DNA from: a virus
Lineage: Duplodnaviria; Heunggongvirae; Uroviricota; Caudoviricetes
Virus record (IMG/VR): IMGVR_UViG_2778261247_000004
Length of the DNA stretch: 26,352 nucleotides
Direction: 5' to 3' (one strand)
Under the pieces are notes generated by a model. It ran no database searches. It had not been told where the DNA came from and worked only from the letters and a program-made list of their open reading frames with translations. Shown here one piece after another: positions 7,689 through 26,352 of this stretch. Each line of letters opens with the position of its first letter. Within the stretch, counting starts at the first letter, position 1. The position numbers and the translations under genes were made by a program.

Positions 7689-9418
7689 GCCGGAAATCTT
7701 ACCCCAACGTAAATGCTGCCAATCAGTATGCCCGGGATGTCGTGCGCGGAAAGATTGTGGCCTGCCAGTTTGTGATTCAGGCCTGCCAGCGCCATCTTGA
7801 TGACCTGATGGCGGAAAAAAGTAAGTCGTTTCGTTACCGCTTCGACAAGGACCTGGCTGAACGGGCCGCCAAATTTATTCAGCTGTTGCCGCACACCAAG
7901 GGTGAGTGGGCATTTAAGAGGATGCCCATCACGCTGGAGCCGTGGCAGCTCTTTGTGATCTGCTGCGCGTTTGGCTGGGTCAATAAAGGCTCCCGGCTGC
8001 GCCGCTTCCGGGAGGTGTATACCGAAATCCCCCGTAAGAACGGCAAATCGGCAATCTCTGCCGGTGTTGCCCTGTATTGTTTTGCCTGTGATAACGAGTT
8101 TGGCGCGGAAGTGTATTCCGGTGCCACGACAGAGAAACAGGCGTGGGAAGTCTTTCGCCCGGCTCGACTGATGTGTAAACGCACACCCATGCTGACGGAA
8201 GCGTTCGGGATTGAGGTTAACGCCTCAAACATGAACCGTCCGGAGGATGGCGCGCGGTTTGAACCGCTGATCGGTAACCCCGGTGATGGTTCATCACCCC
8301 ACTGTGCGGTGGTGGATGAATATCACGAGCACGCCACCGATGCGCTTTACACCACGATGCTTACCGGGATGGGGGCGCGACGTCAGCCACTGATGTGGGC
8401 TATCACCACCGCCGGGTACAACATTGAGGGGCCGTGCTACGACAAGCGGCGGGAAGTCATCGAGATGCTCAATGGCTCGGTGCCTAACGATGAACTGTTC
8501 GGGATCATCTATACCGTTGATGAAGGTGACGACTGGACCGACCCGCAGGTGCTGGAAAAAGCCAATCCAAATATTGGCGTGTCGGTTTATCGCGAATTTT
8601 TGTTAAGTCAGCAGCAGCGTGCGAAAAATAACGCCCGTCTGGCAAACGTCTTTAAAACAAAACACCTCAATATCTGGGTGTCGGCGCGTTCGGCGTATTT
8701 CAACCTGGTGAGCTGGCAGAGCTGCGAGGATAAATCACTGACCCTTGAGCAGTTCGAGGGGCAGCCGTGCATTCTGGCCTTTGACCTGGCGCGTAAGCTG
8801 GATATGAACAGCATGGCGCGACTTTATACCCGCGAGATTGACGGTAAAACGCATTACTACAGTGTGGCCCCGCGTTTCTGGGTACCGTATGACACGGTGT
8901 ACAGCGTCGAGAAAAATGAAGATCGACGGACAGCCGAACGCTTTCAGAAATGGGTGGAAATGGGCGTTCTGACCGTTACCGATGGTGCGGAGGTGGATTA
9001 TCGCTACATCCTCGAGGAGGCCAAAGCGGCGAACAAAATCAGCCCGGTCAGTGAGTCACCCATCGACCCCTTCGGGGCGACCGGGTTGTCACATGACCTT
9101 GCTGATGAAGACCTGAACCCCATCACTATCATTCAGAACTACACCAACATGTCCGACCCGATGAAAGAGCTGGAAGCGGCAATTGAATCGGGGCGCTTTC
9201 ATCATGATGGCAATCCCATCATGACCTGGTGTATCGGCAACGTGGTCGGCAAAACCATTCCGGGTAACGATGATGTGGTGAAACCCGTCAAAGAGCAGGC
9301 GGAAAACAAAATCGATGGTGCAGTTGCGCTGATTATGGCGGTTGGCAGAGCCATGTTGTACGAGAAAGAAGACACGCTGTCTGACCACATTGAGTCCTAC
9401 GGGATCCGCTCGCTTTAA
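7685..9418 (+). CDS. Terminase large subunit
   Basis: 577 aa; size, position and ATPase/nuclease-like organisation consistent with HK97-type TerL. Start overlaps the TerS stop. Confidence 0.9.
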
Positions 9419-10853: not shown

Positions 10854-11481
10854 TGTACCGCTGAGTCTGAAATCTGTCAGTGACTCCGGTGAGTTTGAAG
10901 GGTATGGCTCCGTCTTTGGTGTAAAGGACAGCCACGATGATGTGGTGATGTCCGGGGCATTTGCTGCTTCCCTGCGGGCGTGGAGTGACAGAAAAGCGTT
11001 ACCTGCGCTGCTCTGGCAGCACCGCATGGATGAACCCATCGGTGTTTACACCGAAATGAAGGAAGACGATGTCGGGCTTTACGTCAGGGGACGGTTGCTT
11101 ATTGATGATGATCCCCTCGCAAAACGCGCACATGCACACATGAAGGCCGGTTCGTTAACCGGCCTTTCTATTGGGTACGTCCTGAAAGACTGGGAATACG
11201 ACCGGAGCAAAGAAGCCTTTCTGCTGAAAGAAATCGACCTCTGGGAAGTCAGCCTGGTGACGTTCCCGTCTAACGACGAGGCGCGGATCAGCGACGTCAA
11301 GAACGCACTGGCCCGCGGGGAAATCCCCGAACAGAAAAAAATCGAAAGAGTCCTGCGTGATGTCGGACTCTCCCGTACCCAGGCCAAAGCATTCATGGCC
11401 GGGGGCTATGGCGCACTGTCCCTGCGCGACGCTGAGGATGTGGGCTCTGCACTGAATGCACTGAAAAATCTGAACTTCTAA
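10831..11481 (+). CDS. Prohead maturation protease (HK97 gp4 family)
   Basis: Likely start ATG 10831 (track ORF starts 10795), overlapping the portal 3' end. HK97-type prohead protease features; position between portal and major capsid. Confidence 0.85.
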   Translation: MQTKQRLDVPLSLKSVSDSGEFEGYGSVFGVKDSHDDVVMSGAFAASLRAWSDRKALPALLWQHRMDEPIGVYTEMKEDDVGLYVRGRLLIDDDPLAKRAHAHMKAGSLTGLSIGYVLKDWEYDRSKEAFLLKEIDLWEVSLVTFPSNDEARISDVKNALARGEIPEQKKIERVLRDVGLSRTQAKAFMAGGYGALSLRDAEDVGSALNALKNLNF

Positions 11482-11495
11482 TCAGGAGAAATACG

Positions 11496-12701
11496 ATGGC
11501 GGTTGATATTAAAGATGTCGAACAGGTCGCGCAGGAGCTGCAGCAGAAGTTTGACGACTTCAAAGCAAAGAACGACAAGCGCGTGGATGCGATTGAGCAG
11601 GAAAAAGGCAAACTTGCCGGGCAGGTGGAAACCCTGAACGGGAAACTCAGCGAGCTGGAAAACCTCAAAAGCGATCTTGAAAAAGAGCTGCTTGAGCTGA
11701 AACGTCCGGCAGGTGGTGCACAAAATAAACTGGCCACCGAGCATAAAGAAGCGTTTGTGGGCTTCCTGCGTAAAGGCCGTGAAGATGGTCTGCGCGATCT
11801 GGAGCGCAAGGCATTGCAGGTGGGCACCGATGAAGACGGCGGCTATGCCGTGCCGGAAGCACTGGATCGCAACATTCTCACCCTGCTGAAAGATGAAGTG
11901 GTGATGCGCCAGGAAGCCACGGTGATCACCGTTGGTGGTTCCGACTACAAAAAACTGGTGAATCTGGGCGGCACGGCTTCCGGATGGGTTGGCGAGACTG
12001 ACGCGCGCTCCCAGACTGCCACCTCAAAACTGGGCCTGATTGAACCTTTCATGGGGGAAATCTACGGTAACCCGCAGGCCACCCAGAAAATGCTGGATGA
12101 TGCCTTTTTCAACGTGGAAGCATGGATCAACAGTGAGCTGGCAACCGAATTTGCCGAACAGGAAGAAATTGCCTTTACCACCGGCGATGGTACCAAGAAG
12201 CCGAAAGGGTTCCTGGCGTATGAATCCACTGATGAAACCGATAAGGTCCGGGCGTTCGGCAAACTTCAGCATATTGTATCCGGCGAAGCGACGGCGGTGA
12301 CCGCAGACGCCATTATCAAACTGATTTACACGCTGCGTAAGGCACACCGCACTGGCGCGAAGTTCATGATGAACAACAACAGCCTGTTTGCCATCCGTCT
12401 GCTTAAAGACAGCGAGGGTAACTATCTGTGGCGTCCGGGGCTGGAACTGGGGCAGCCGTCCTCTCTGGCGGGTTACGGTATCGCTGAAAACGAACAGATG
12501 CCGGATATCGCCGCTGATGCGAAAGCCATTGCATTTGGTAACTTCAAACGGGGTTACACCATCGTTGACCGTATCGGCACCCGCATTCTGCGTGACCCGT
12601 ACACCAATAAACCGTTTGTCGGTTTTTATACCACCAAGCGCACCGGCGGGATGCTGGTCGATTCGCAGGCCATCAAACTGCTGAAGATTGCAGCGGCGTA
12701 A
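11496..12701 (+). CDS. Major capsid protein (HK97 fold) with N-terminal coiled-coil delta domain
   Basis: 401 aa. N-terminal about 100 aa is a Lys/Glu-rich coiled coil (scaffolding-like delta domain) followed by a capsid domain. RBS AGGAG 7 nt upstream. Confidence 0.9.
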   Translation: MAVDIKDVEQVAQELQQKFDDFKAKNDKRVDAIEQEKGKLAGQVETLNGKLSELENLKSDLEKELLELKRPAGGAQNKLATEHKEAFVGFLRKGREDGLRDLERKALQVGTDEDGGYAVPEALDRNILTLLKDEVVMRQEATVITVGGSDYKKLVNLGGTASGWVGETDARSQTATSKLGLIEPFMGEIYGNPQATQKMLDDAFFNVEAWINSELATEFAEQEEIAFTTGDGTKKPKGFLAYESTDETDKVRAFGKLQHIVSGEATAVTADAIIKLIYTLRKAHRTGAKFMMNNNSLFAIRLLKDSEGNYLWRPGLELGQPSSLAGYGIAENEQMPDIAADAKAIAFGNFKRGYTIVDRIGTRILRDPYTNKPFVGFYTTKRTGGMLVDSQAIKLLKIAAA

Positions 12702-12708
12702 TCACTCA

Positions 12709-12728
12709 GGGGCGCGGAACCGCGCCCC
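12709..12728 (+). other. GC-rich stem-loop just downstream of the major capsid gene (weak terminator or RNA-stabilising hairpin)
   Basis: GGGCGCG-gaac-CGCGCCC hairpin with no following U-run. Confidence 0.3.
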
Positions 12729-12750
12729 CTGTTCTGACGGGTGAAGAATC

Positions 12751-12951
12751 ATGATCCTGAAACAAGATCTGAAATGGTCACCGGACGGTATGCGTGTTGA
12801 GGTCATTCGGGCCGGTGAGTATGACGATGGGGCGCTTCCTGCCCGGGTGCAGGAGATTGCACTTCAGGCCGGGTTAGCAGAGCGCGGAATCAGTGCAAAA
12901 AGCAGTAAAGCGGCAAAAGAGAAAAAAGCCACGACCAGTAAAGAGGGCTGA
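12751..12951 (+). CDS. Hypothetical small head-module protein
   Basis: 66 aa ORF between capsid and connector genes, Lys-rich C-terminus. No family recognised. Confidence 0.4.
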   Translation: MILKQDLKWSPDGMRVEVIRAGEYDDGALPARVQEIALQAGLAERGISAKSSKAAKEKKATTSKEG

Positions 12952-12953
12952 GT

Positions 12954-13277
12954 ATGCTTCTGACAATGGAAGAGATTAAAGCCCAACTCCGGCTGGATGA
13001 GGATTTCGATGCTGATGACCGCCATCTGCAACTGCTGGCCTGTGCGGCACAAAAGCGGACGGAAACGTATCTGAACCGGAAGCTCTATGCACCGGATGAA
13101 ACCATTCCGGACAGCGATCCGGACGGGCTGCACCTGCCGGATGATATTCGTCTGGGGATGCTGATGCTTATCAGCCATTTTTACGAAAACCGCTCGTCGG
13201 TTACGGAAGTGGAGAAACTCGACATGCCGCAGAGTTTTGGCTGGCTTGTCGGCCCGTACAGGTACTTTCCGCAATGA
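12954..13277 (+). CDS. Head-tail connector (gp6-like adaptor) protein
   Basis: 107 aa with the N-terminal MEEIKAQLRLDEDFDADD signature typical of gp6-like head-tail connector proteins. Position after the capsid gene. Confidence 0.75.
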   Translation: MLLTMEEIKAQLRLDEDFDADDRHLQLLACAAQKRTETYLNRKLYAPDETIPDSDPDGLHLPDDIRLGMLMLISHFYENRSSVTEVEKLDMPQSFGWLVGPYRYFPQ

Positions 13278-13684: not shown

Positions 13685-14165
13685 TTTTCAGCAGCCCGCG
13701 GAGATGCGCTTTAACCGCGCCCGTGTCCGGCGGGCGTTTGTCACGATTGGTCAGCGTCATATGCGTGATGCCCGTCGGCTGGTGATGCGCCGTGCGCGGT
13801 CGGCACCGGGTGAAAACCCCGGTTATCAGACCGGACGCCTGGCTCGTTCGATTGGTTACATGGTACCCAGAGCCAGTAAACATCGCCCTGGTTTTATGGC
13901 ACGTATAGCCCCTAACCAGCGTAATGGAGAGGGAAACCGCCGTATCACCGGTGATTTTTATCCGGCTTTTTTGTTCTATGGCGTGAGGCGAGGGGCAAAG
14001 CGTCGTCGCAGCCATCATCGTGGTGCATCCGGTGGCAGCGGCTGGCGACTGGCTCCACGTAATAACTTTATGGTGGAAACGCTTGAAAAGAACCGCAGCT
14101 GGACACGCTATTTTCTGGCGCGGGAATTACGTAAATCACTGAAGCCGGAGCGACGACGCAGATGA
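13659..14165 (+). CDS. HK97 gp10-like neck / tail-completion protein
   Basis: 168 aa with a GYQTGRLARSIGY motif like the HK97 gp10 family. Alternative start ATG 13704. Confidence 0.6.
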   Translation: MTTSFLHVDFQQPAEMRFNRARVRRAFVTIGQRHMRDARRLVMRRARSAPGENPGYQTGRLARSIGYMVPRASKHRPGFMARIAPNQRNGEGNRRITGDFYPAFLFYGVRRGAKRRRSHHRGASGGSGWRLAPRNNFMVETLEKNRSWTRYFLARELRKSLKPERRRR

Positions 14166-14722
14166 AACTGACGCCTGTTATTGCTGCGCTGCGTGCCCGC
14201 TGCCCGTATTTTGAAAACCGGGTGGCAGGCGCGGCACAGTTCAAAAATCTGCCGGAGGTCGGAAAGCTGAGACTCCCGGCGGCATATGTGGTACCGGGTG
14301 ATGACTCTCCGGGAGAAAACAAAAGCCAGACCGACTACTGGCAGGAGCTGAAAGAGGGCTTCTCCGTGGTTGTCATACTGAGTAACGGACGTGATGAGCG
14401 CGGTCAGTTTGCCTCGTATGATGTGGTGGACGATGTCCGGCAGATGCTCTTTAAGGCCCTGCTGGGCTGGAACCCGGAAGCGTGCGGTAACCCGATTACC
14501 TATGACGGCGGCACGCTGCTGGATCTGAATCGTCATGAGCTGATTTATCAGTTCGATTTTTCGGTCATCAGCGAGCTGACCGAAGACGATACCCGCCAGC
14601 AGGATGACCTGAACAGTCTGGATGAACTGCGAACGCTGGCGATTGATGTTGATTATCTCGATCCCGGTAACGGGTCTGACGGCGATATCGAACATCACAC
14701 CGAAATACCCCTTCCTTCCTGA
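14162..14722 (+). CDS. Tail terminator / tail completion protein (Mu-like, DUF1834-type)
   Basis: 186 aa immediately upstream of the DUF2635-sheath-tube block, the usual place for the tail terminator of Mu-like contractile tails. Confidence 0.5.
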   Translation: MKLTPVIAALRARCPYFENRVAGAAQFKNLPEVGKLRLPAAYVVPGDDSPGENKSQTDYWQELKEGFSVVVILSNGRDERGQFASYDVVDDVRQMLFKALLGWNPEACGNPITYDGGTLLDLNRHELIYQFDFSVISELTEDDTRQQDDLNSLDELRTLAIDVDYLDPGNGSDGDIEHHTEIPLPS

Positions 14723-14730
14723 GGATCATC

Positions 14731-14901
14731 ATGTTTGTGAAACCTGTTAAAGGGCGGTCAGTGCCTGACCCTGCCCGCGGCGACCTTTTGCCCGCCGAAG
14801 GGCGAAATGTTGATGAGAACAACTACTGGCTGCGCCGTGAAGCAGCGGGTGATATCCGGCGCGTGAATAAAAAGGTGAACACCGATGACGATAAGCTTTA
14901 A
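14731..14901 (+). CDS. Small DUF2635-like protein preceding the tail sheath (not in the supplied ORF track, under 60 aa)
   Basis: My own translation: MFVKPVKGRSVPDPARGDLLPAEGRNVDENNYWLRREAAGDIRRVNKKVNTDDDKL (56 aa). RBS GAGGA 5 nt upstream. Resembles the short conserved ORF found before Mu-like sheath genes. Overlaps the sheath start. Confidence 0.5.
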   Translation: MFVKPVKGRSVPDPARGDLLPAEGRNVDENNYWLRREAAGDIRRVNKKVNTDDDKL

Positions 14902-16381
14902 CACCATTCCGTCGAATACGCTGGTTCCGCTGTTTTATGCGGAAATGGATAACCAGGCTGCGAATACTGCACAGGACAGCGGAGCATCGCTGCTGATTGG
15001 TCATGCCAATAACGGTGCAGAGATTGTTGCCAACAGTCTGGTACTGATGCCGTCGGCAGACTATGCACGCCAGATTTGTGGTGCGGGAAGTCAGCTGGCG
15101 CGTATGGTCGAGGCTTATCGCCAGACTGACCCGTTTGGCGAGCTGTATGTGATTGCCGTTCCTGAATCCACAGGCGCGGCGGCAACGGTTACGCTGACGG
15201 TGACCGGGGCGGCAACCGAAACCGGCACGGTGAATGTGTATGTGGGACGTACCCGCGTGCAGGCACCGGTGACTAACGGCGATAACGTTACGATGATTGC
15301 CAGCAGTATCCAGGATGCCATCAATGCCGTTCCGACCCTGCCGTTTACGGCTTCATCTTCGGCAGGCGTGGTCACACTGACCGCGCGTCATAAGGGGCTT
15401 TGCGGGAATGAAATTCCTGTCAGCCTCAATTACTACGGCTTTGGTGGGGGCGAAGTGCTGCCAGCGGGCGTACAGATTGCCGTGGTGACGGGTACCGCCG
15501 GAACGGGTGCTCCGGTTCTCACCGGCGCTGTGGCTGCAATGGCGGATGAGCCGTTTGATTATATCGGCCTGCCGTTCAACGACACGGCCTCCGTTAACAC
15601 GCTGGTGACCGAGATGAACGATACCAGCGGTCGCTGGAGCTATGCGCGTCAGCTGTATGGTCATGTGTATACGGCAAAGACCGGCACGCTGTCAGAACTG
15701 GTGACCGCAGGTGACCAGTTTAACCAGCAGCACATTACCCTGGCGGGGTACGAAAAAGACACCCAGACGCCTGCCGACGAGCTGGCGGCAAGCCGTACCG
15801 CCCGCGCAGCGGTGTTTATCCGCAACGATCCGGCACGTCCCACGCAGACCGGTGAGCTGGTGGGTATGCTGCCTGCGCCGAAGGGGAAACGGTTCACGAT
15901 GACCGAACAAAAGACCCTGCTGTCTCATGGCGTGGCAACGGCGTATGTCGAAAGCGGGGTACTGCGCATTCAGCGTGATGTCACCACGTACAGGAAAAAC
16001 GCTTACGGGGTTGCGGATAACAGCTACCTCGACAGCGAGACGCTGCATACCAGTGCGTATGTACTGCGCAAACTGAAATCCGTCATTACCAGTAAGTACG
16101 GGCGTCACAAGCTTGCCAGCGACGGTACCCGCTTTGGTCCCGGTCAGGCGATTGTCACCCCGGCGGTGATCAAAGGGGAACTGCTGGCAACCTACCGTCA
16201 GCTTGAGCGTGCGGGGATCGTGGAAAACTACGAACTTTTTAAGCAGTACCTGGTTGTGGAGCGTGATGCCAGCGATCCGAACCGCCTGAACACGCTGTTC
16301 CCGCCTGACTATGTTAACCAGTTGCGTGTCTTTGCCGTGGTTAACCAGTTCCGTCTTCAGTATTCAGAGGAGTCCGCATAA
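14885..16381 (+). CDS. Contractile tail sheath protein (Mu gpL-like)
   Basis: 498 aa; size, composition and position directly upstream of the tube gene. Confidence 0.85.
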   Translation: MTISFNTIPSNTLVPLFYAEMDNQAANTAQDSGASLLIGHANNGAEIVANSLVLMPSADYARQICGAGSQLARMVEAYRQTDPFGELYVIAVPESTGAAATVTLTVTGAATETGTVNVYVGRTRVQAPVTNGDNVTMIASSIQDAINAVPTLPFTASSSAGVVTLTARHKGLCGNEIPVSLNYYGFGGGEVLPAGVQIAVVTGTAGTGAPVLTGAVAAMADEPFDYIGLPFNDTASVNTLVTEMNDTSGRWSYARQLYGHVYTAKTGTLSELVTAGDQFNQQHITLAGYEKDTQTPADELAASRTARAAVFIRNDPARPTQTGELVGMLPAPKGKRFTMTEQKTLLSHGVATAYVESGVLRIQRDVTTYRKNAYGVADNSYLDSETLHTSAYVLRKLKSVITSKYGRHKLASDGTRFGPGQAIVTPAVIKGELLATYRQLERAGIVENYELFKQYLVVERDASDPNRLNTLFPPDYVNQLRVFAVVNQFRLQYSEESA

Positions 16382-16737
16382 TGGCCCGTATCGGGGGAAC
16401 CTGTTATTTCAAAATTGACGGTCAGCAGCTATCGCTGACCGGCGGCATTGAGGTGCCCATGAACAGGACGGTCAATGATGACATCATCGGCCTGGACGGT
16501 TCAGTGGACCGCAAGGAAACTCACCGTGCGCCTTATGTTAAAGGGACCTTCAAGGTGCCGAAGAATTTTCCGGTGAGCAAAATCACCTCGTCTGATGAGA
16601 TGACCATCACTGCCGAGCTGGCGAACGGTCAGGTCTATGTACTGTCGTCTGCCTGGCTGCACGGCGAAGCGAACCATAATGCCGAAGAAGGGACGGTTGA
16701 TCTTGAGTTCCACGGTGAAGAAGGGGATTACCAGTAA
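16381..16737 (+). CDS. Tail tube protein (Mu gpM-like)
   Basis: 118 aa directly after the sheath gene; start ATG overlaps the sheath stop. Confidence 0.8.
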   Translation: MARIGGTCYFKIDGQQLSLTGGIEVPMNRTVNDDIIGLDGSVDRKETHRAPYVKGTFKVPKNFPVSKITSSDEMTITAELANGQVYVLSSAWLHGEANHNAEEGTVDLEFHGEEGDYQ

Positions 16738-17006
16738 TGAAAGAGCTTGAGTTAAAGAAACCGATTACCGCTCATGGCGAGACACTCTCCGTACTGGAGT
16801 TTGATGAGCCCACCGGGAAAGATGTCCGCGAGCTGGGGTATCCCTACCAGATGAATCAGGATGAGTCCGTCAGACTTCTGGCGCATGTGGTATCGAAATA
16901 CATTGTGCGGCTGGCGAAAGTGCCGCAAAACTCTGTCGACCAGATGTCTCCGGCAGACCTGAATGCTGCGGCGTGGCTTGTGGCTGGTTTTTTCCTCCAG
17001 GTCTGA
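16737..17006 (+). CDS. Tail assembly chaperone (short, in-frame product)
   Basis: 89 aa ORF immediately upstream of the tape measure gene (TAATG overlap with tube). Ends just after a TTTTTTC slippery heptamer. Confidence 0.7.
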   Translation: MKELELKKPITAHGETLSVLEFDEPTGKDVRELGYPYQMNQDESVRLLAHVVSKYIVRLAKVPQNSVDQMSPADLNAAAWLVAGFFLQV

Positions 17007-17155
17007 CGGCTGAATACCTCACTGATCGCTTCTTTGACTGCGCCAGCTACTGGCGCATTAATCCCTTCGAATTGCTGAATATGCCGATCAGTGAAATTCC
17101 CTTGCTGGTCAGTCAGGCAAACAGGATAGAGCAGGAGAAACGCACACATGGCTGA
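16737..17155 (+). CDS. Tail assembly chaperone, predicted -1 frameshift fusion product (lambda G/GT analogue)
   Basis: Slippery heptamer T_TTT_TTC at 16988-16994 in the 0 frame. The -1 frame (track ORF 16973-17155) stays open for about 54 more codons and ends inside the start of the tape measure gene. Confidence 0.5.
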
Positions 17156-18983
17156 ATTTGAGCTTAAGGCGTTGATCACCGGTGTCGACAGGCTTTCTCC
17201 CGCGCTGTCGAAAATGCAAAAGAAAATCCGGGGATTTAAACGCCAGGCGGAAGAAGCGTCACAGGGTGGGCTGGCGCTTGGTGGCGGACTGGCTGCGGGT
17301 CTGACGCTTTCCCTGAAATCTTATGCCGATCAGGAAAACGCCGCCACCGGGCTGAAAGTTGCCATGATGGATGCGAACGGTGAGGTCGGAAAGCGCTTTC
17401 AGGACATCAATAAACTGGCTATTGGTCTGGGTAACCAGCTACCCGGTACAACGGCTGATTTCCAGAACATGATGCAGATGCTGGTGCGTCAGGGGATCCC
17501 GGCAGAAAACATTCTTGGCGGTGTGGGTAAAGCGACAGCTTATCTTGCGGTACAACTGAAAAAAACACCGGAAGCGGCTGCCGAGTTTGCCGCAAAGATG
17601 CAGGATGCTACCGGAACGGCGTCAGAAGACATGATGGGGCTGTTCGACACTATCCAGAAGGCGTTTTATCTGGGCGTTGACGATACCAACATGTTGTCCT
17701 TCTTCACTAAAACCAGCTCTGTTCTGAAGATGGTGAACAAGGACGGTCTTCAGGCTGCACAGAGCCTTGCCCCCATCAGCGTCATGATGGATCAGATGGG
17801 GATGAACGGGGAGTCGGCAGGTAACGCCCTGCGAAAAGTTATCCAGTCCGGATTAAGCGTTAAGAAAATCAGGGACGTCAATAAAGTCATGGCCCGCCAG
17901 AAACTCGGGGTACAGCTCGATTTTACTGACGGCAAAGGGAGTTTTGGCGGTCTTGATAACATGTTCAGGCAACTGGCAAAGCTGCGAAAACTGACCGACG
18001 TTAAGCGAACTGGTGTACTTAAGGCAATATTTGGTGATGATGCCGAAACCCTTCAGGTGGTCAATGCACTAATCGATAAAGGAAAGGATGGCTACGACCA
18101 GATCCAGCAGAAGATGAATAAACAGGCCAGTCTGAATAAACGTGTTCAGGCACAGCTTGGTACGCTGTCCAACCTGTGGGAGGCAATGACAGGGACCGCA
18201 ACTAACGGCCTTGCGGCTATTGGCGGCGCATTTTCTGGTGACGCTAAAAATATCACGCAATGGCTGGGGGAGTTGGGGGAGAAATTCACGAAGTTTGCGG
18301 ATGAAAATCCCCGGGTTATTCGCGGCGTCGTCGGGCTTGCTGCCGGTCTTGCGATTCTGAAACTGGGATTGATGGGCGTTGGCGGTGCCATCAGTATTGT
18401 CAGCAGGATCATGTCGATGACGCCGATTGGCATGATTGCGACGGCGATAGCCCTGGCTGCGGGATTAATTATCACTAACTGGGATGTTGTCGGACCTTAT
18501 TTCAAGAAGCTCTGGGAAACCATTGGTCCTTATTTTGAGGCTGGCCGGGAACTTCTGAAGAAGGTTTTTGCCTGGTCGCCGCTGGGGATGGTAATCAATA
18601 ACTGGGGACCGGTTGTTAAGTGGTTTCAGGATATGTGGGACAAGCTGAAGCCAATTATTGAGTGGTTTACCGACAGTTCCGGTGACACGGTCGATGCCAT
18701 TAACTCTGCGCAGTGGGGCGCGGGTGCTTATGATGCTTATGGGACGGGAATACCGGCACGGGGATACACACCTTATCAGGCGGTGGATCCGGCTCAGTCA
18801 AACAACGCCTCCGGTGCCACAGGCCCGAATCCCTTCATGATTAACAAAGCTTCTGCGCCAAAAGTTGATGGTGAGATCAAGGTCTCTTTTGTGAATTCAC
18901 CTCCGGGTATGCGGGTTATGGAAACGCGATCCAGCGGTTTTGATGTCAGCCATGATGTTGGCTATACGCGCTTTGGCAGGTAA
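17148..18983 (+). CDS. Tail tape measure protein
   Basis: 611 aa, Ala/Gly/Leu/Lys-rich, with a hydrophobic internal segment. Position after the frameshifted chaperone pair. Confidence 0.85.
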   Translation: MAEFELKALITGVDRLSPALSKMQKKIRGFKRQAEEASQGGLALGGGLAAGLTLSLKSYADQENAATGLKVAMMDANGEVGKRFQDINKLAIGLGNQLPGTTADFQNMMQMLVRQGIPAENILGGVGKATAYLAVQLKKTPEAAAEFAAKMQDATGTASEDMMGLFDTIQKAFYLGVDDTNMLSFFTKTSSVLKMVNKDGLQAAQSLAPISVMMDQMGMNGESAGNALRKVIQSGLSVKKIRDVNKVMARQKLGVQLDFTDGKGSFGGLDNMFRQLAKLRKLTDVKRTGVLKAIFGDDAETLQVVNALIDKGKDGYDQIQQKMNKQASLNKRVQAQLGTLSNLWEAMTGTATNGLAAIGGAFSGDAKNITQWLGELGEKFTKFADENPRVIRGVVGLAAGLAILKLGLMGVGGAISIVSRIMSMTPIGMIATAIALAAGLIITNWDVVGPYFKKLWETIGPYFEAGRELLKKVFAWSPLGMVINNWGPVVKWFQDMWDKLKPIIEWFTDSSGDTVDAINSAQWGAGAYDAYGTGIPARGYTPYQAVDPAQSNNASGATGPNPFMINKASAPKVDGEIKVSFVNSPPGMRVMETRSSGFDVSHDVGYTRFGR

Positions 18984-22421: not shown

Positions 22422-23466
22422 ATTTCAGCGCCCGACGCTGGCAGAAAATATCAGTATGCTCCGTAACGATTTATTCGCCAGGCTGGACGTCAGCGACACG
22501 CTCCGGCGCATGGATGAAGACGTGCGGGCAAAGGTGTATGCGGCGGCGCTGCATACGGTTTACGGGTACATCGATTATCTGGCAATGAACATGCTGCCTG
22601 ACCTGTGCGATGAGTCCTGGCTGGCGCGACATGCTGCGATGAAACGGTGTCCGCGCAAGGGGGCCACGACTGCCAGCGGGTATATGCGCTGGGAAGGCGT
22701 CAGCGATGGCCTGAAGGTGACCGCCGGGAGTGTTATTCAGCGCGATGACCTGATTCAGTACACGGCAACTGCCGATGCAACCAGCGCCGGTGGTGTCCTG
22801 CGCGTGCCGATCGCCTGCTCAAGTGCAGGCGCGGTCGGTAACGCTGACGACGGTACGTCATTAATCCTGGTCACGCCGGTTAATGGTCTGCCGTCTTCCG
22901 GCGTGGCAGACACTCTGACAGGTGGATTTGATACTGAAGAGCTGGAAACGTGGCGCGCCCGCGTCATTGAGCGGTATTACTGGACGCCTCAGGGCGGGGC
23001 TGACGGGGACTATGTTGTCTGGGCTAAAGAATTGCCCGGCATTACCCGCGCATGGGCATACCGTCACTGGATGGGAACGGGGACTGTCGGTGTGATGATT
23101 GCCAGCAGTGACCTGATTAATCCCATTCCGGAAGAATCAACGGAAACGGCGGCAAGACAACATATCGGGCCACTGGCCCCGGTGGCAGGCTCTGATTTGT
23201 ATGTGTTCAGGCCGGTGGCGCATACGGTGGATTTTCATATCCGTGTGACGCCGGATACACCGGAAATACGGGCTGCCATCACCGCGGAGTTGCGTTCGTT
23301 CCTGCTGCGTGATGGTTATCCGCAGGGAGAACTGAAGGTGTCGCGTATCAGTGAAGCGATTTCCGGTGCGAACGGGGAATACAGCCATCAATTGCTTGCA
23401 CCGGCGGAAAATATCTCCATTGCAAAAAATGAACTGGCGGTTCTGGGGACGATTTCATGGGCGTGA
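22408..23466 (+). CDS. Baseplate J-like protein (Mu gp47-like)
   Basis: 352 aa; position and size consistent with the baseplate J family. Confidence 0.8.
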
Positions 23467-24041
23467 CAAACGATGATTACATCCGTCTGTTGTCGGCACT
23501 GCTGCCGCCCGGTCCGGCGTGGTCAGCCAGCGATCCGGCGATTGCCGGTGCGGCACAGTCATTAACCCGCGTTCATCAGCGTGCGGATGCCCTGATGCGG
23601 GAGCTGGATCCGCGCACCACCACCGAACTGATAAATCGCTGGGAGCGTCTGTGCGGCCTGCCGGATGAATGTATTCCCGCAGGAACACAGACCCTTCGCC
23701 AGCGTCAGCAACGACTGGATGCGAAGGTTAACCTGGCGGGCGGCATCAATGAGGATTTTTACCTTGCACAGCTTGCTGCCCTGGGCAGACCAGACGCCAC
23801 CATCACGCGATACGACAAAAGCACGTTCACCTGCTCATCGGCCTGTACTGACGCGGTGAATGCGCCGGAATGGCGGTATTACTGGCAGGTCAACATGCCA
23901 GCCGCCACCAACAGCACCTGGATGACATGTGGCGATCCCTGTGATTCCGCGCTGCGTATCTGGGGCGACACCGTCGTCGAATGTGTGCTTAACAAACTCT
24001 GCCCTTCGCATACCTACGTAATTTTTAAATATCCGGAGTAA
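23457..24041 (+). CDS. Tail protein, Mu gp48-like (DUF2313; YmfQ-like)
   Basis: 194 aa, directly upstream of the tail fibre gene, as for ymfQ in the e14 element. Confidence 0.65.
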
Positions 24042-24044
24042 TCC

Positions 24045-24788
24045 ATGCATCGTATAGACACGAAAACCGCGCAGAAGGATAAGTTCGGCGCGGGTAAGAA
24101 CGGTTTTACCCGTGGTAACCCCCAGACAGGCACGCCTGCCACCGATCTGGATGATGACTACTTTGACATGTTGCAGGAAGAACTCTGCAGCGTGGTGGAG
24201 GCATCCGGTGCCAGTCTGGAGAAGGCGCGGCACGACCAGCTGCTTACCGCGCTTCGTGCGCTGCTGTTAAGCCGCAAGAATCCGTTTAGCGATATCAAAT
24301 CGGACGGCACGGTGAAAACGGCTCTCGAAAACCTTGGTTTGGGAGAAGGCTCTGCATTACCTGTTGGTGTGCCTGTTCCATGGCCTTCAGCCACACCGCC
24401 AACAGGCTGGCTGAAATGCAACGGTGCGGCTTTTTCTGCTGAAGAATACCCGGAACTGGCAAAGGCTTATCCGACAAATAAATTGCCTGATTTACGTGGT
24501 GAGTTTATTCGTGGCTGGGATGATGGGCGCGGCGTTGATTCAAGGCGTGCGGTGCTGTCAACACAAGAGCCAACTGTAGGTACTTTTTATGTGGAGCTAG
24601 CTATCATCTCGGGAACTTTGAGCGGCTCAGGTGCTAAATTTACCGATTCAGTAGGGATTGGATCAACCAGTAGTAACATTACCGTTAGCAACGGTAATGA
24701 CCAGTCCGTGTCGGGTACAGTGGCCGTTAACCCCGTCGATACCCGTCCACGCAACATTGCATTTAACTATATCGTGAGAGCAGCATAA
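24045..24788 (+). CDS. Tail fibre protein (constant N-terminal part plus currently expressed variable C-terminal part)
   Basis: 247 aa. Contains a phage tail-collar signature ([30 protein letters not shown]...[17 protein letters not shown]). The left inversion site lies inside it at 24322-24347. Confidence 0.8.
24322..24347. repeat. Left crossover site for a Hin/Gin/Pin-family serine invertase (hix/gix-like)
   Basis: TCTCGAAAACCTTGGTTTGGGAGAA has the AAACC-NN-GGTTT core of hix/gix/pix sites. Its reverse complement matches the right site over 13 consecutive bases. Confidence 0.6.
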
Positions 24789-25390
24789 TGGATAAAGCAA
24801 TATTAAATAGTGGACTTGTTGCTACAAAGGCAGGGGATATTACCGTTTATAACTATGATGGTGAAACTCGGGAATATATTTCCACTTCAAGTGAATATCT
24901 TGCCGTTGGTGTTGGTATCCCGGCATATTCCTGTCTGGATGCACCAGGTATACATAAGGCGGGTTATGCTATCTGTCGTTCTGTGAATTTAAATTCATGG
25001 GAATATGTGCCAGACCATCGCGGTGAAATCGTCTATAACACCGAAACGGGAGAATCAAAACAAATCACAGCACCGGGTGATTACCCCGAAAATACAACCA
25101 CTATTGCCCCATTAACGCCATACGATAAATGGGATGGTGAGAAATGGGTGACCGATACTGAGGCACAGCATAGCGCCGCAGTAGACGCGGCAGAAGCACA
25201 GCGTCAGTCACTGATTGATGCTGCAATGGCTTCCATCGGTCTGATTCAGCTGAAATTACAGGCCGGACGGAAGCTGATGCAGGCAGAAACAACCCGGCTT
25301 AACGCTGTGCTGGATTACATTGACGCGGTGACGGCAACAAATACCAGCACAGCGCCGGATGTCATCTGGCCTGAACTGCCGGAGGCGTAG
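24788..25390 (+). CDS. Tail fibre assembly protein (Tfa/U-like)
   Basis: 200 aa; TAATG overlap with the fibre gene; C-terminal Tfa signature (...LDYIDAVTATNTSTAPDVIWPELPEA). Confidence 0.8.
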   Translation: MDKAILNSGLVATKAGDITVYNYDGETREYISTSSEYLAVGVGIPAYSCLDAPGIHKAGYAICRSVNLNSWEYVPDHRGEIVYNTETGESKQITAPGDYPENTTTIAPLTPYDKWDGEKWVTDTEAQHSAAVDAAEAQRQSLIDAAMASIGLIQLKLQAGRKLMQAETTRLNAVLDYIDAVTATNTSTAPDVIWPELPEA

Positions 25391-25805
25391 GCCATTCAAT
25401 ATCTGGCGCACAGGAAGTATCGACCAGTTCCAGTGCGTCCAGATAATCCAGCCACGAATTATATTGCGCCAGTTCCTCGCCTTTCAGACGACCAATAGCA
25501 GCTTTGCCAGGCCACTGATGGGTATTGATGTAGGTATTGACTTCTGAAACCAAAGATATTTTTTTCATTTCAGCCGTCAACACCTCATCCTCTTTTGAAG
25601 GGGGTGGGGAATTAATCCATACTGGCCGTCCTGAACTGTCAGCGCCAATTTCTTTCCCTTCTGGATGCAGACCAAGAAATTGCTCATATGTTTCTCTGGT
25701 AATTTCAATAACATCATCAGGAAGCGTTCCCGCATCCTCATATTCTGGAAACAATTCTTGCAGATAAAAACTTTTACTTCCGGGTGAAAAGAATACTGAG
25801 TTCAT
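25362..25805 (-). CDS. Alternative tail fibre assembly protein (Tfa'/U'-like), minus strand
   Basis: 147 aa, convergent with and 3'-overlapping the + strand tfa. C-terminal Tfa signature (WLDYLDALELVDTSCAPDIEWPTPP). Confidence 0.75.
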   Translation of the reverse strand: MNSVFFSPGSKSFYLQELFPEYEDAGTLPDDVIEITRETYEQFLGLHPEGKEIGADSSGRPVWINSPPPSKEDEVLTAEMKKISLVSEVNTYINTHQWPGKAAIGRLKGEELAQYNSWLDYLDALELVDTSCAPDIEWPTPPAVQAR

Positions 25806-25807
25806 TA

Positions 25808-26352
25808 TTACCGTCCAATGATTAACGCTGAGACGCTGGTATCTGAAGGAAAGGCTGCATTCAGTGGTTTGTCGACTTTGAACACAATCGTATTATTCCC
25901 CCTGACAGCGGCAAAAGAACAAACCGCCGTCGCGTATGAACCTGTAATATTACTGGATACACCACCATAAGCTGTTGTTGATACCAGAGGGATAACGCCC
26001 AGCACCTTATTAGGAAATACAAAGGGCAATGTGGCTGTGGCAATATAAGACTTATTAGAACCTGTGATGGCATAAGCATTATCAGTCATTCCATTCATCG
26101 CCACTGGGCCGCTTATACTTACAGTAACCATCTGAATGATTAGCCCGTCAGGTTGACGAATCACAAAATTTCCATTGCTACCAGTAACCGTCCAGAAAGA
26201 CATATCAGGGATTTGGTTTTCCCCGTTGCCCACATTCCGTTTTGCCGCTTCTCCCAAACCAACGTTTATGAAAATGGTAACCGGCTCATTTAAACCGTCT
26301 GGTCTGTTTCCTCCGGCTCTACAAAAATAATGTCCATCATTTTTAATGGACA
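25808..26352 (-). CDS. Alternative tail fibre variable C-terminal segment (Sv'-like), minus strand; frame stays open to the window edge
   Basis: The track ORF starts at TTG 26257, but my translation of the same frame stays open through 26352 (...PDGLNEPVTIFINVGLGEAAKRN...). Shares an N.GLGE junction with the + strand fibre exactly at the inverted repeat. Stop is 2 nt before the tfa' start. Confidence 0.6.
   Translation of the reverse strand, partial: SIKNDGHYFCRAGGNRPDGLNEPVTIFINVGLGEAAKRNVGNGENQIPDMSFWTVTGSNGNFVIRQPDGLIIQMVTVSISGPVAMNGMTDNAYAITGSNKSYIATATLPFVFPNKVLGVIPLVSTTAYGGVSSNITGSYATAVCSFAAVRGNNTIVFKVDKPLNAAFPSDTSVSALIIGR
26246..26271. repeat. Right crossover site (inverted copy) for a serine invertase
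   Basis: TTCTCCCAAACCAACGTTTATGAAAA. The central dinucleotide AA is the reverse complement of the left site's TT, as required for inversion. Confidence 0.6.

Follow-up and report, generated by a model that had tools for sequence, protein, structure and literature searches.

A Din-type invertible tail-fibre cassette orphaned of its invertase in an SfV/e14-like prophage of Escherichia coli

Described fibre switches and the related prophage locus

Phages Mu and P1 carry invertible segments whose two orientations give virions of different host range (summarised in PMC12529663), and inversion of the segment in the e14 element by PinE and PinQ was shown experimentally (PMC12529663; PMC4272514). According to previous work (PMC12529663), the e14 segment is also a substrate of PinQ, both the Mu G segment and the Salmonella H segment are inverted by PinE, and the latter is in addition a target of Fin, which provides a precedent for flipping in trans.

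The window analysed here, a stretch of 26,352 nucleotides from a virus of the Caudoviricetes (IMG/VR record IMGVR_UViG_2778261247_000004), carries near its right end a phage fibre switch of this known and ordinary kind, in a copy orphaned of its invertase. It very probably represents an invertible tail-fibre cassette of the Din family (Hin/Gin/Cin/Pin), equivalent to the P segment of e14 and the G segment of Mu. The cassette's own invertase is dead, and its later flips most likely came about through an invertase acting in trans. The cassette ends the Mu-like tail module of an SfV/e14-like E. coli prophage, and the gene upstream of it matches the Pfam family Phage_Mu_Gp48. This prophage has a complete complement of genes for head and tail and adjoins ssrA in strain UTI89. 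It shows signs of decay outside the cassette as well, its integrase being annotated as a pseudogene, and the phage may no longer be viable.

The P segment of e14 in E. coli K-12 (ymfQ-stfP-tfaP / tfaE-stfE' / pinE) resembles the window in gene order and in the flanking gene ymfQ, and its 26-bp sites, as well as the intergenic region from the site to pin, are identical to those of window-type loci. The two differ in segment length (1797 bp in e14 versus 1929 bp in the window), in the tip of the alternative fibre end (S'v), which shows little similarity, in the alleles of the chaperone gene tfa', and in the distal tip of the expressed fibre end (Sv). Moreover, e14 is a 15-kb relic at icd, whereas the cassette described here belongs to a full-length SfV-like prophage. 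The pinE gene of e14 is intact and followed by mcrA, while pin in the window lineage consists of 41 codons followed by a DUF262 gene, with an IS66-family element between the site and this stub here. The e14 element itself was ruled out as the identity of the locus by the full-length prophage beside ssrA (in UTI89), the other S'v and tfa' alleles, and the truncated pin.

The G segment of Mu (S/U, U'/S', gin) has the layout Sc / Sv-U / U'-S'v / invertase, which matches that of the window, and in both cases the cassette follows a Mu-type baseplate module (gp44-48 homologues). The gix sites of Mu share the AAACC-NN-GGTTT layout, whereas their outer half-site sequences differ from those of the window. 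The Mu segment is also longer (~3 kb, with fibres of ~500 aa, compared with 247 aa for the window fibres), and Mu possesses gin, unlike the window locus, which is without an active invertase. The C segment of P1, with cin, cix sites and an enhancer within cin, belongs to the same class of switch. However, cin is found at the opposite end of the P1 segment, and this segment measures 4.2 kb and carries different fibre genes.

In addition, cassettes with contents 89-92% identical to window positions ~24323-26276 are present in P2-like prophages (for example Escherichia phage P2 from O157:H43 T22, pro483, 500465-1 and Fels-2), where they are followed by a DNA invertase gene with 80-84% DNA identity to pinE. 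The fibres to which these cassettes are attached are of the P2 gpH type and the tail module is that of P2, in contrast to the Mu-like/SfV-like baseplate found here.

Gene content and crossover sites

The fibre gene, an ORF at 24045-24788 on the plus strand encoding a Phage Tail Collar domain, contains the left crossover site within it. Codons 1-96 and the first base of codon 97 make up its constant N-terminus (Sc; 24045-24333, plus strand), which is not part of the invertible segment. Over residues 1-100, the identity to the e14 StfP N-terminus is ~97%, and Sc is common to SfV-family phages at 96-97% identity, up to window position 24348. The expressed variable C-terminus (Sv; 24334-24788, plus strand) matched the Pfam Collar family (PF07484, E=1.2e-15) and the PHROG tail fibre/tail collar fibre families; its first ~75 residues past the site are identical to e14 StfE, and the tip then diverges. 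Next comes tfa (24788-25390, plus strand), which encodes a TfaE-like tail-fibre assembly chaperone of 200 aa paired with Sv (Pfam Caudo_TAP, E=4.4e-30). The product is 91% identical to TfaE of K-12 e14, and the gene is annotated as tfaE in strains DE17 and UTI89.

On the minus strand, tfa' (25362-25805) encodes the alternative assembly chaperone of 147 aa (Caudo_TAP, E=5.9e-28), which is paired with S'v and is 54% identical to e14 TfaP. The alternative fibre C-terminus itself (S'v; 25808-26262, minus strand, ORF 25808-26257) matched PHROG tail-fibre families, together with a weak Pfam match to Gp53-like_C below the cut-off, and is unjoined to Sc in the present orientation. Each fibre end accordingly has its own chaperone, encoded by a Caudo_TAP gene directly 3' of it on the same strand; the 3' ends of tfa and tfa' overlap by 29 bp. 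ORFs, Pfam and PHROG all agree with the initial annotation, which had placed a fibre C-terminus and tfa on one strand and tfa' with an alternative C-terminus on the other.

The segment between the cores (24334-26262, 1929 bp core to core) is bounded by two inverted, imperfectly symmetric 26-bp sites with matching 2-bp cores, as is characteristic of the Din family, and these could be aligned with the e14 and Mu sites. The left, pixL/gixL-like site occupies 24322-24347 on the plus strand (CTCTCGAAAACC-TT-GGTTTGGGAGAA, core TT at 24334-24335), and the right, pixR/gixR-like site occupies 26249-26274, likewise read on the plus strand (TTCTCCCAAACC-AA-CGTTTATGAAAA, core AA at 26261-26262). Their arms are complementary at 19 of 20 positions (24329-24348 versus 26248-26267), and an exact inverted core of 14 bp, TTGGTTTGGGAGAA, occurs at two places in the window, on opposite strands (0.00 expected, from 100 shuffles). 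A third crossover site, of the kind known from the p15B and P1 multi-inversion systems, was not found in the window, where a 19-mer search allowing up to 3 mismatches returned the two sites only (0.03 expected). As well, a AAACCNNGGTTT-like match at 13814 was rejected as a crossover site, since it is at chance level.

Two inverted Hin/Gin/Pin-type sites bounding the fibre segment had been proposed beforehand, and both were recovered here, with a 14-bp core and none expected by chance. Some details needed revision. The right site had been placed at 26246-26271, which is 3 nt off; the identity between the sites is exact as claimed and extends over 14 bp rather than 13 bp; and the AAACC-NN-GGTTT core assigned to both sites is exact in the left one, while the right one has a single mismatch (CGTTT). 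The central dinucleotides are complementary, as had been noted and as is needed for inverted sites.

The left site has the same sequence as its counterpart in e14, and its architecture is that of Mu gixL. It includes the e14 inverted repeat TTGGTTTGGGAGAAGG published in PMC12529663, which was inverted experimentally by PinE and PinQ (PMC12529663). The right site is identical in UTI89, APEC O1, MLI104K1 and K-12 e14. The repeat encodes a conserved peptide motif, LGLGE, at a fibre domain boundary, and might on that ground be regarded as a coincidence of protein conservation in a locus where nothing inverts. The probability of this is negligible, and it is refuted by the exact inversion products that occur in nature; the sites are, moreover, identical to experimentally recombined sites, and the right site runs on into non-coding DNA conserved beside pin. 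An N-x-G-L-G-E motif across the site was read in both fibre frames, as initially reported, and the prediction that inversion would swap the C-termini in frame was borne out by a computed inversion, which yielded an uninterrupted fusion protein of 247 aa.

Orientations among complete genomes

The computed fusion of Sc with S'v is present in APEC O1 as an annotated CDS of 744 bp, and the predicted flipped junction was matched at 99.9% identity over 1334 bp. In total, 39 complete E. coli genomes carry this junction, counted as genomes covering at least 80% of the Sc+S'v junction query. The segment of APEC O1 is the reverse complement of the window segment with 1 mismatch in 1929 positions, and the sequence on either side of it is the same. 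Of the genomes that share the truncated pin junction, 79 are in the window orientation and 24 in the opposite orientation. Both orientations, with breakpoints in the sites, thus occur among complete E. coli genomes, the variation being seen between genomes. An assembly artefact was rejected as the source of these differences, because any read is longer than these repeats of only ~20 bp and the assemblies are complete. The earlier view of an invertible fibre segment captured in one orientation is supported by the inversion product in near-identical prophages, by sites that are those of e14 (pix), and by a 98%-identical relative with an intact pinE.

The polymorphism might alternatively reflect homologous recombination or gene conversion with a prophage copy of opposite orientation rather than site-specific inversion. 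Homology for such exchange is ample, as many other prophages (SfV-like and P2-like) share the constant fibre part as well as the cassette, the latter at 89-92% identity, and mosaic joints are found at the crossover site. Nevertheless, this origin is highly unlikely, given that the flipped segment of APEC O1 differs at 1 of 1929 positions and that its flanks are identical, including the lineage-specific junction of stub and DUF262 gene. A flipped donor of exactly the same sequence would itself require inversion, and the breakpoints coincide with validated invertase sites.

Both orientations among genomes with the same truncation show that inversion went on after the invertase had been lost. Public genomes with the window sequence leave the invertible segment unmarked and call its fibre halves 'phage tail protein' or 'hypothetical protein'. 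Recognising the cassette accounts for a 1.9-kb inversion difference between closely related ExPEC/APEC genomes; its importance beyond correct annotation is little.

The truncated invertase and probable flipping in trans

The genome of E. coli DE17 is 100% identical to the window, within an SfV/e14-like prophage, and shows what lies to the right of it. After the right site, IS66 tnpA, tnpB and a transposase are annotated, followed by a 123-bp recombinase pseudogene. No working invertase was found to the right of the window in this identical genome; only the first 41 codons of pin are present, ~2.8 kb from the site and behind the IS66-family element, and the rest of pin is replaced by DNA with the DUF262 gene. 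The left end of the element, which is ISCro1-like, occupies 26277-26352 on the plus strand of the window, inserted 2 bp past the right site according to the DE17 annotation and alignment. The target site duplicated by the insertion, the 8-bp TGAAAATG, covers 26269-26276, and the alignment indicates that the right site was kept intact. Genomes of the UTI89 type match the window up to 26276 only, and both UTI89 and APEC O1 carry the same pin stub without the IS.

By contrast with the window genome, which has no intact small serine recombinase gene adjacent to the segment, a 98%-identical locus in MLI104K1 carries an intact pinE of 181 aa immediately beyond the right site. Its product contains the Resolvase (PF00239) and HTH_7 (PF02796) domains and aligned along its whole length to the Gin protein of Mu (PDB 3UJ3, E=4e-92). 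The cognate invertase is thus, as judged from the gene remnant, dead in the window's genome, and with its loss any current switching needs an invertase in trans. An invertase gene and its enhancer had initially been expected to the right of the window; the intact gene is missing, while the 41-codon stub does retain a homologue of the cin enhancer.

The enhancer is annotated at nt 19-90 of cin in the P1 record. The homologous stretch of the pin stub, which sits outside the window, is identical at 72 of 72 positions to the intact pinE, at 70 of 72 to e14 pinE and at 55 of 72 to P1. By this homology, the stub may keep an enhancer role. Hin needs only the 26-bp sites and the enhancer, which acts from kilobases away (PMC3798978).

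As in other members of the family, a small serine invertase would bind both 26-bp sites and, with a Fis-bound enhancer, would cut the TT/AA cores with a 2-bp stagger and rotate the 1.93-kb segment. Sc (codons 1-96), to which attachment of the fibre at the baseplate is ascribed in this family of fibre switches, would then be joined in frame either to Sv with tfa, as in the window, or to S'v with tfa', and inversion would change the receptor-binding tip along with its matching chaperone. A role of the cassette in host-range switching is inferred from its homology with Mu, P1 and e14. In the window lineage, an invertase supplied in trans by another prophage, a plasmid or an infecting phage would act on the intact sites and the enhancer homologue of the stub, and the flips after invertase loss presumably took place in this way. 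The locus is a further natural example of a Din-type segment flipped after its own invertase was lost, which fits the invertase cross-talk between prophages already shown for Fin/Hin and PinQ/e14.

Candidate sources of such an enzyme were surveyed by blastn with chimeric queries, in which a lineage-specific anchor was combined with pinE or pinQ, and matching places were counted per chromosome, without coordinates. One extra pinE-type place was detected in each of UTI89 and IHE3034, and one extra place with the pinQ/anchor query in each of APEC O1 and S88. At blastn sensitivity, no other pinE-like or pinQ-like chromosomal DNA was found in PMV-1, GN06489 or ZJ3920, among which both orientations are represented. 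DE17 carries many IS66 copies, which confound the place counts in that chromosome. Among E. coli genomes at large, pin-like genes are very common, a pinE/DUF262 query matching 4826 of 5426 genomes.

It is quite possible that the cassette is locked in the window's strain, with no compatible invertase and an orientation that is merely inherited. Only the 41-codon stub is left there, the IS66-family element has inserted between the site and the enhancer stub, both IS carriers (DE17 and VTB96815v) share one orientation, several related chromosomes lack other pinE-like or pinQ-like DNA, and pinE mutants of K-12 are locked in one orientation (PMC12529663). However, neither 26-bp site is damaged, DE17 keeps the enhancer homologue ~2.8 kb off, and the Hin enhancer acts across kilobases (PMC3798978). 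The two orientations with the same truncation show that flips took place in the lineage after truncation, and the abundance of pin-like genes likewise argues against locking. Against the preferred reading of an orphaned cassette flipped in trans stand the loss of a functional invertase from the locus and, at blastn sensitivity, the lack of other pinE-like or pinQ-like DNA in several chromosomes of either orientation; many strains may have a frozen orientation, and flips may have been rare events of the past.

The cassette might also have been co-opted by the host, such that a flip by the invertase of another prophage yields a fibre-derived protein blocking adsorption of an unrelated phage and does not serve the host range of the prophage itself. 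This was described for e14 in K-12, where T2 adsorption is blocked by the chimeric StfE2 once PinQ of the Qin prophage has flipped the P segment (PMC12529663). The window has the same sites as e14 and a constant part ~97% identical, and IS-free relatives have a 163-aa ORF, equivalent to e14 stfE, that starts at an ATG lying 26 nt outside the right site and extends into the silent half of the fibre. Such a role is nevertheless improbable here, considering that the tips differ from those of e14, that the IS in the window removes the external start of the right-hand ORF, and that the full head and tail gene set is unlike that of a reduced relic.

Beyond the orphaned cassette flipped in trans, it is conceivable, if unlikely, that the locus is more than a product of decay and that the lineage maintains an invertase-less switch, consisting of intact sites and a stub with the enhancer homologue, which is flipped only on the arrival of a compatible invertase with another prophage, a plasmid or an infecting phage. 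Its fibre-derived products might then benefit the host, for instance through receptor blocking of the sort reported for e14 StfE2 under PinQ. The identical pin stub is carried by 281 complete genomes, with both orientations among them, which is compatible with such maintenance.

Crossover sites and gene content of the segment

The tail-fibre locus carries two 26-bp crossover sites on the + strand coordinates, of which the left one (CTCTCGAAAACC-TT-GGTTTGGGAGAA, 24322-24347) lies inside the fibre reading frame 24045-24788 and the right one (TTCTCCCAAACC-AA-CGTTTATGAAAA) occupies 26249-26274, 3 nt higher than the 26246-26271 of the initial annotation. The pair constitutes the top inverted repeat of the region in a repeat search (20 nt, 95% complementary, 1899 nt between the arms), and 14 bp, not the 13 originally counted, are identical between the sites. 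The 14-mer TTGGTTTGGGAGAA is present in exactly two copies in the 26-kb window, one per strand (0.00 expected from shuffles), and no third crossover site was found in the window, because a 19-mer search allowing up to 3 mismatches returned the same two places only (0.03 expected). Sites in inverted orientation need complementary central dinucleotides, and the cores TT (24334-24335) and AA (26261-26262) are indeed complementary, as had been claimed.

The segment spans 1929 bp from core to core (24334-26262). The fibre gene (24045-24788, +) encodes a 247-aa protein with a Phage Tail Collar domain and is followed by a Caudo_TAP tail-fibre assembly protein (24788-25390, +), while a second Caudo_TAP protein (25362-25805) and a second fibre C-terminus (25808-26262) are encoded on the - strand. 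The genes upstream of the fibre are those of a Mu-type baseplate, gp47/J and gp48/YmfQ. The core TT supplies the second and third bases of codon 97 (CTT, Leu) of the fibre, and computed exchange of the segment at the cores gave a 247-aa protein without interruption, which bears out the proposal that inversion swaps the fibre C-termini in frame. The convergent assembly genes overlap at their 3' ends by 29 bp (25362-25390). As well, an inverted repeat (25309-25326 and 25435-25452) mirrors the conserved C-terminal coding sequence of both.

Inversion of the segment among E. coli genomes

A set of 5,426 complete E. coli genomes was searched for the junction predicted after inversion, which consists of 634 bp ending in the constant fibre N-terminus (Sc) joined to the reverse-complemented right end of the segment. 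This junction was found with 99.9% identity over the full 1334 bp, and at least 80% of it was covered in 39 genomes, such as APEC O1, IHE3034 and IMT5155. APEC O1 has the same flanks with the annotated genes in flipped order, and its segment, once reverse-complemented, differs from that of the window at 1 of 1929 positions. Therefore, the segment, initially proposed as invertible from the window alone, has inverted in nature, with breakpoints within the shared core. By homology to known systems, it might act as a host-range switch.

Loss of the invertase and subsequent flipping

E. coli DE17 and VTB96815v are 100% identical to window 23400-26352, and many ExPEC/APEC genomes, including UTI89, S88, NU14 and ATCC 11775, show 100% identity as far as 26276. 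Positions 26277-26352, at the end of the window, belong to the left end of an ISCro1-like element of the IS66 family, and this insertion is common to DE17 and VTB96815v only. Its 8-bp target duplication, TGAAAATG at 26269-26276, takes in the outermost 6 bp of the right site, which is intact despite this overlap.

In MLI104K1 (98.3% identical), the start of pinE, the gene of a 181-aa serine invertase, lies 68 bp beyond the right-site centre; the protein combines Resolvase and HTH_7 domains and can be aligned over its full length to Mu Gin (PDB 3UJ3, E=4e-92). In UTI89 and APEC O1, pin is reduced to its first 123 bp, annotated as a partial recombinase; this stub matches intact pinE exactly through nt 122 and thereafter gives way to DNA with a DUF262 gene. 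The same stub-DUF262 junction is shared by 281 or more complete genomes. The DUF262-domain gene replacing the 3' part of pin lies on the opposite strand (UTI89 locus 11053-13043; DE17 locus 13862-18201), and in DE17 it is itself interrupted by a second IS66-family element. In DE17, the invertase gene that had been expected beyond the right edge of the window is absent, because pin has been cut to a stub and an IS inserted, placing the stub about 2.8 kb beyond the right site, past the IS. With the local invertase a stub behind an IS, current switching activity in the strain of the window is doubtful.

Genomes bearing the stub were sorted by orientation with 800-bp queries consisting of the segment inner end, right site, stub and DUF262 flank, for which 80% coverage is out of reach of genomes with intact pinE; 79 genomes have the orientation of the window and 24 the opposite one. 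Since the truncation was a single event on one molecule, both orientations behind it mean that the segment flipped after pin was truncated, and acquisition of the opposite orientation through replacement by recombination is much less likely. What a post-truncation flip driven in trans requires appears to be in place. Both 26-bp sites are intact, and the stub keeps a stretch homologous to the enhancer annotated at nt 19-90 of cin in the P1 record (72/72 positions against intact pinE, 55/72 against P1), which is a putative enhancer on this resemblance. The enhancer of Hin, 65 bp long, sits about 100 bp away from one hix site and is active over kilobases (PMC3798978). Previous work showed that the segment of e14, a cryptic K-12 prophage, is flipped by PinQ of prophage Qin, that the Mu G and Salmonella H segments are flipped by PinE, and that the H segment is acted on by Fin of Fels-2 (PMC12529663). 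Some chromosomes carry one extra pinE-like or pinQ-like place, and others, of either orientation, have no further such place at blastn sensitivity. Flipping is probably an uncommon event, with the segment probably locked in many strains. The evidence that the segment flipped once its cognate invertase had been lost is the sole mildly notable point of the locus; systems of this kind are already known.

Relation to e14 and other phages

Judged by sequence, the locus is one more allele of a textbook switch. Its gene order is that of e14 (ymfQ-stfP-tfaP / tfaE-stfE' / pinE), and both crossover sites are base-for-base equal to those of e14; the published e14 repeat TTGGTTTGGGAGAAGG (PMC12529663) is contained in the sites of both. 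Identity to e14 is about 97% in the constant fibre part and 91% in TfaE, whereas TfaP is only 54% identical to tfa', the alternative assembly gene of the window. StfE shares an identical collar part with the expressed C-terminus (Sv) but differs in the distal tip, and the alternative C-terminus (S'v) has a different tip. Earlier studies described how the e14 segment phase-varies in culture and documented inversions of the P segment across deposited E. coli genomes (PMC4272514; PMC12529663).

The host prophage combines lambdoid early genes, an HK97-type head and a Mu-like contractile tail, and may be defective despite a full structural gene set. As gene names and order are shared between the DE17 prophage and e14, it appears to be a full-length relative of the phage ancestral to e14. 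It is adjoined by ssrA in UTI89. At its left end in DE17 (locus 1-78), an incomplete Arm DNA-binding domain protein is annotated, an integrase pseudogene, and its right end bears a DinI-like pseudogene.

In phage Mu, the same layout recurs at a larger size. P2-like phages of E. coli, Salmonella and Klebsiella carry the cassette with 89-92% identity (window ~24323-26276) followed by their own DNA invertase, and the cassette is thus common to prophages with Mu-like and P2-like tails. The Shigella phages SfV, SfI, SfII and SfIV are 96-97% identical over window 23400-24348 and divergent beyond, their similarity stopping at the exact end of the left site. A mosaic joint between fibre modules falls at the left site, or at the LGLGE motif encoded there.

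In IS-free relatives, a 163-aa reading frame (MPFARYFCIFINVGLGE...) starts at an ATG located about 26 nt beyond the right site and runs into the "silent" fibre half (APEC O1 locus 8108-8600, equivalent to window 25808 to ~26300); this frame is the counterpart of e14 stfE. A chimeric form of e14 stfE reportedly blocks adsorption of T2. The IS in the window takes away the start of the 163-aa frame.
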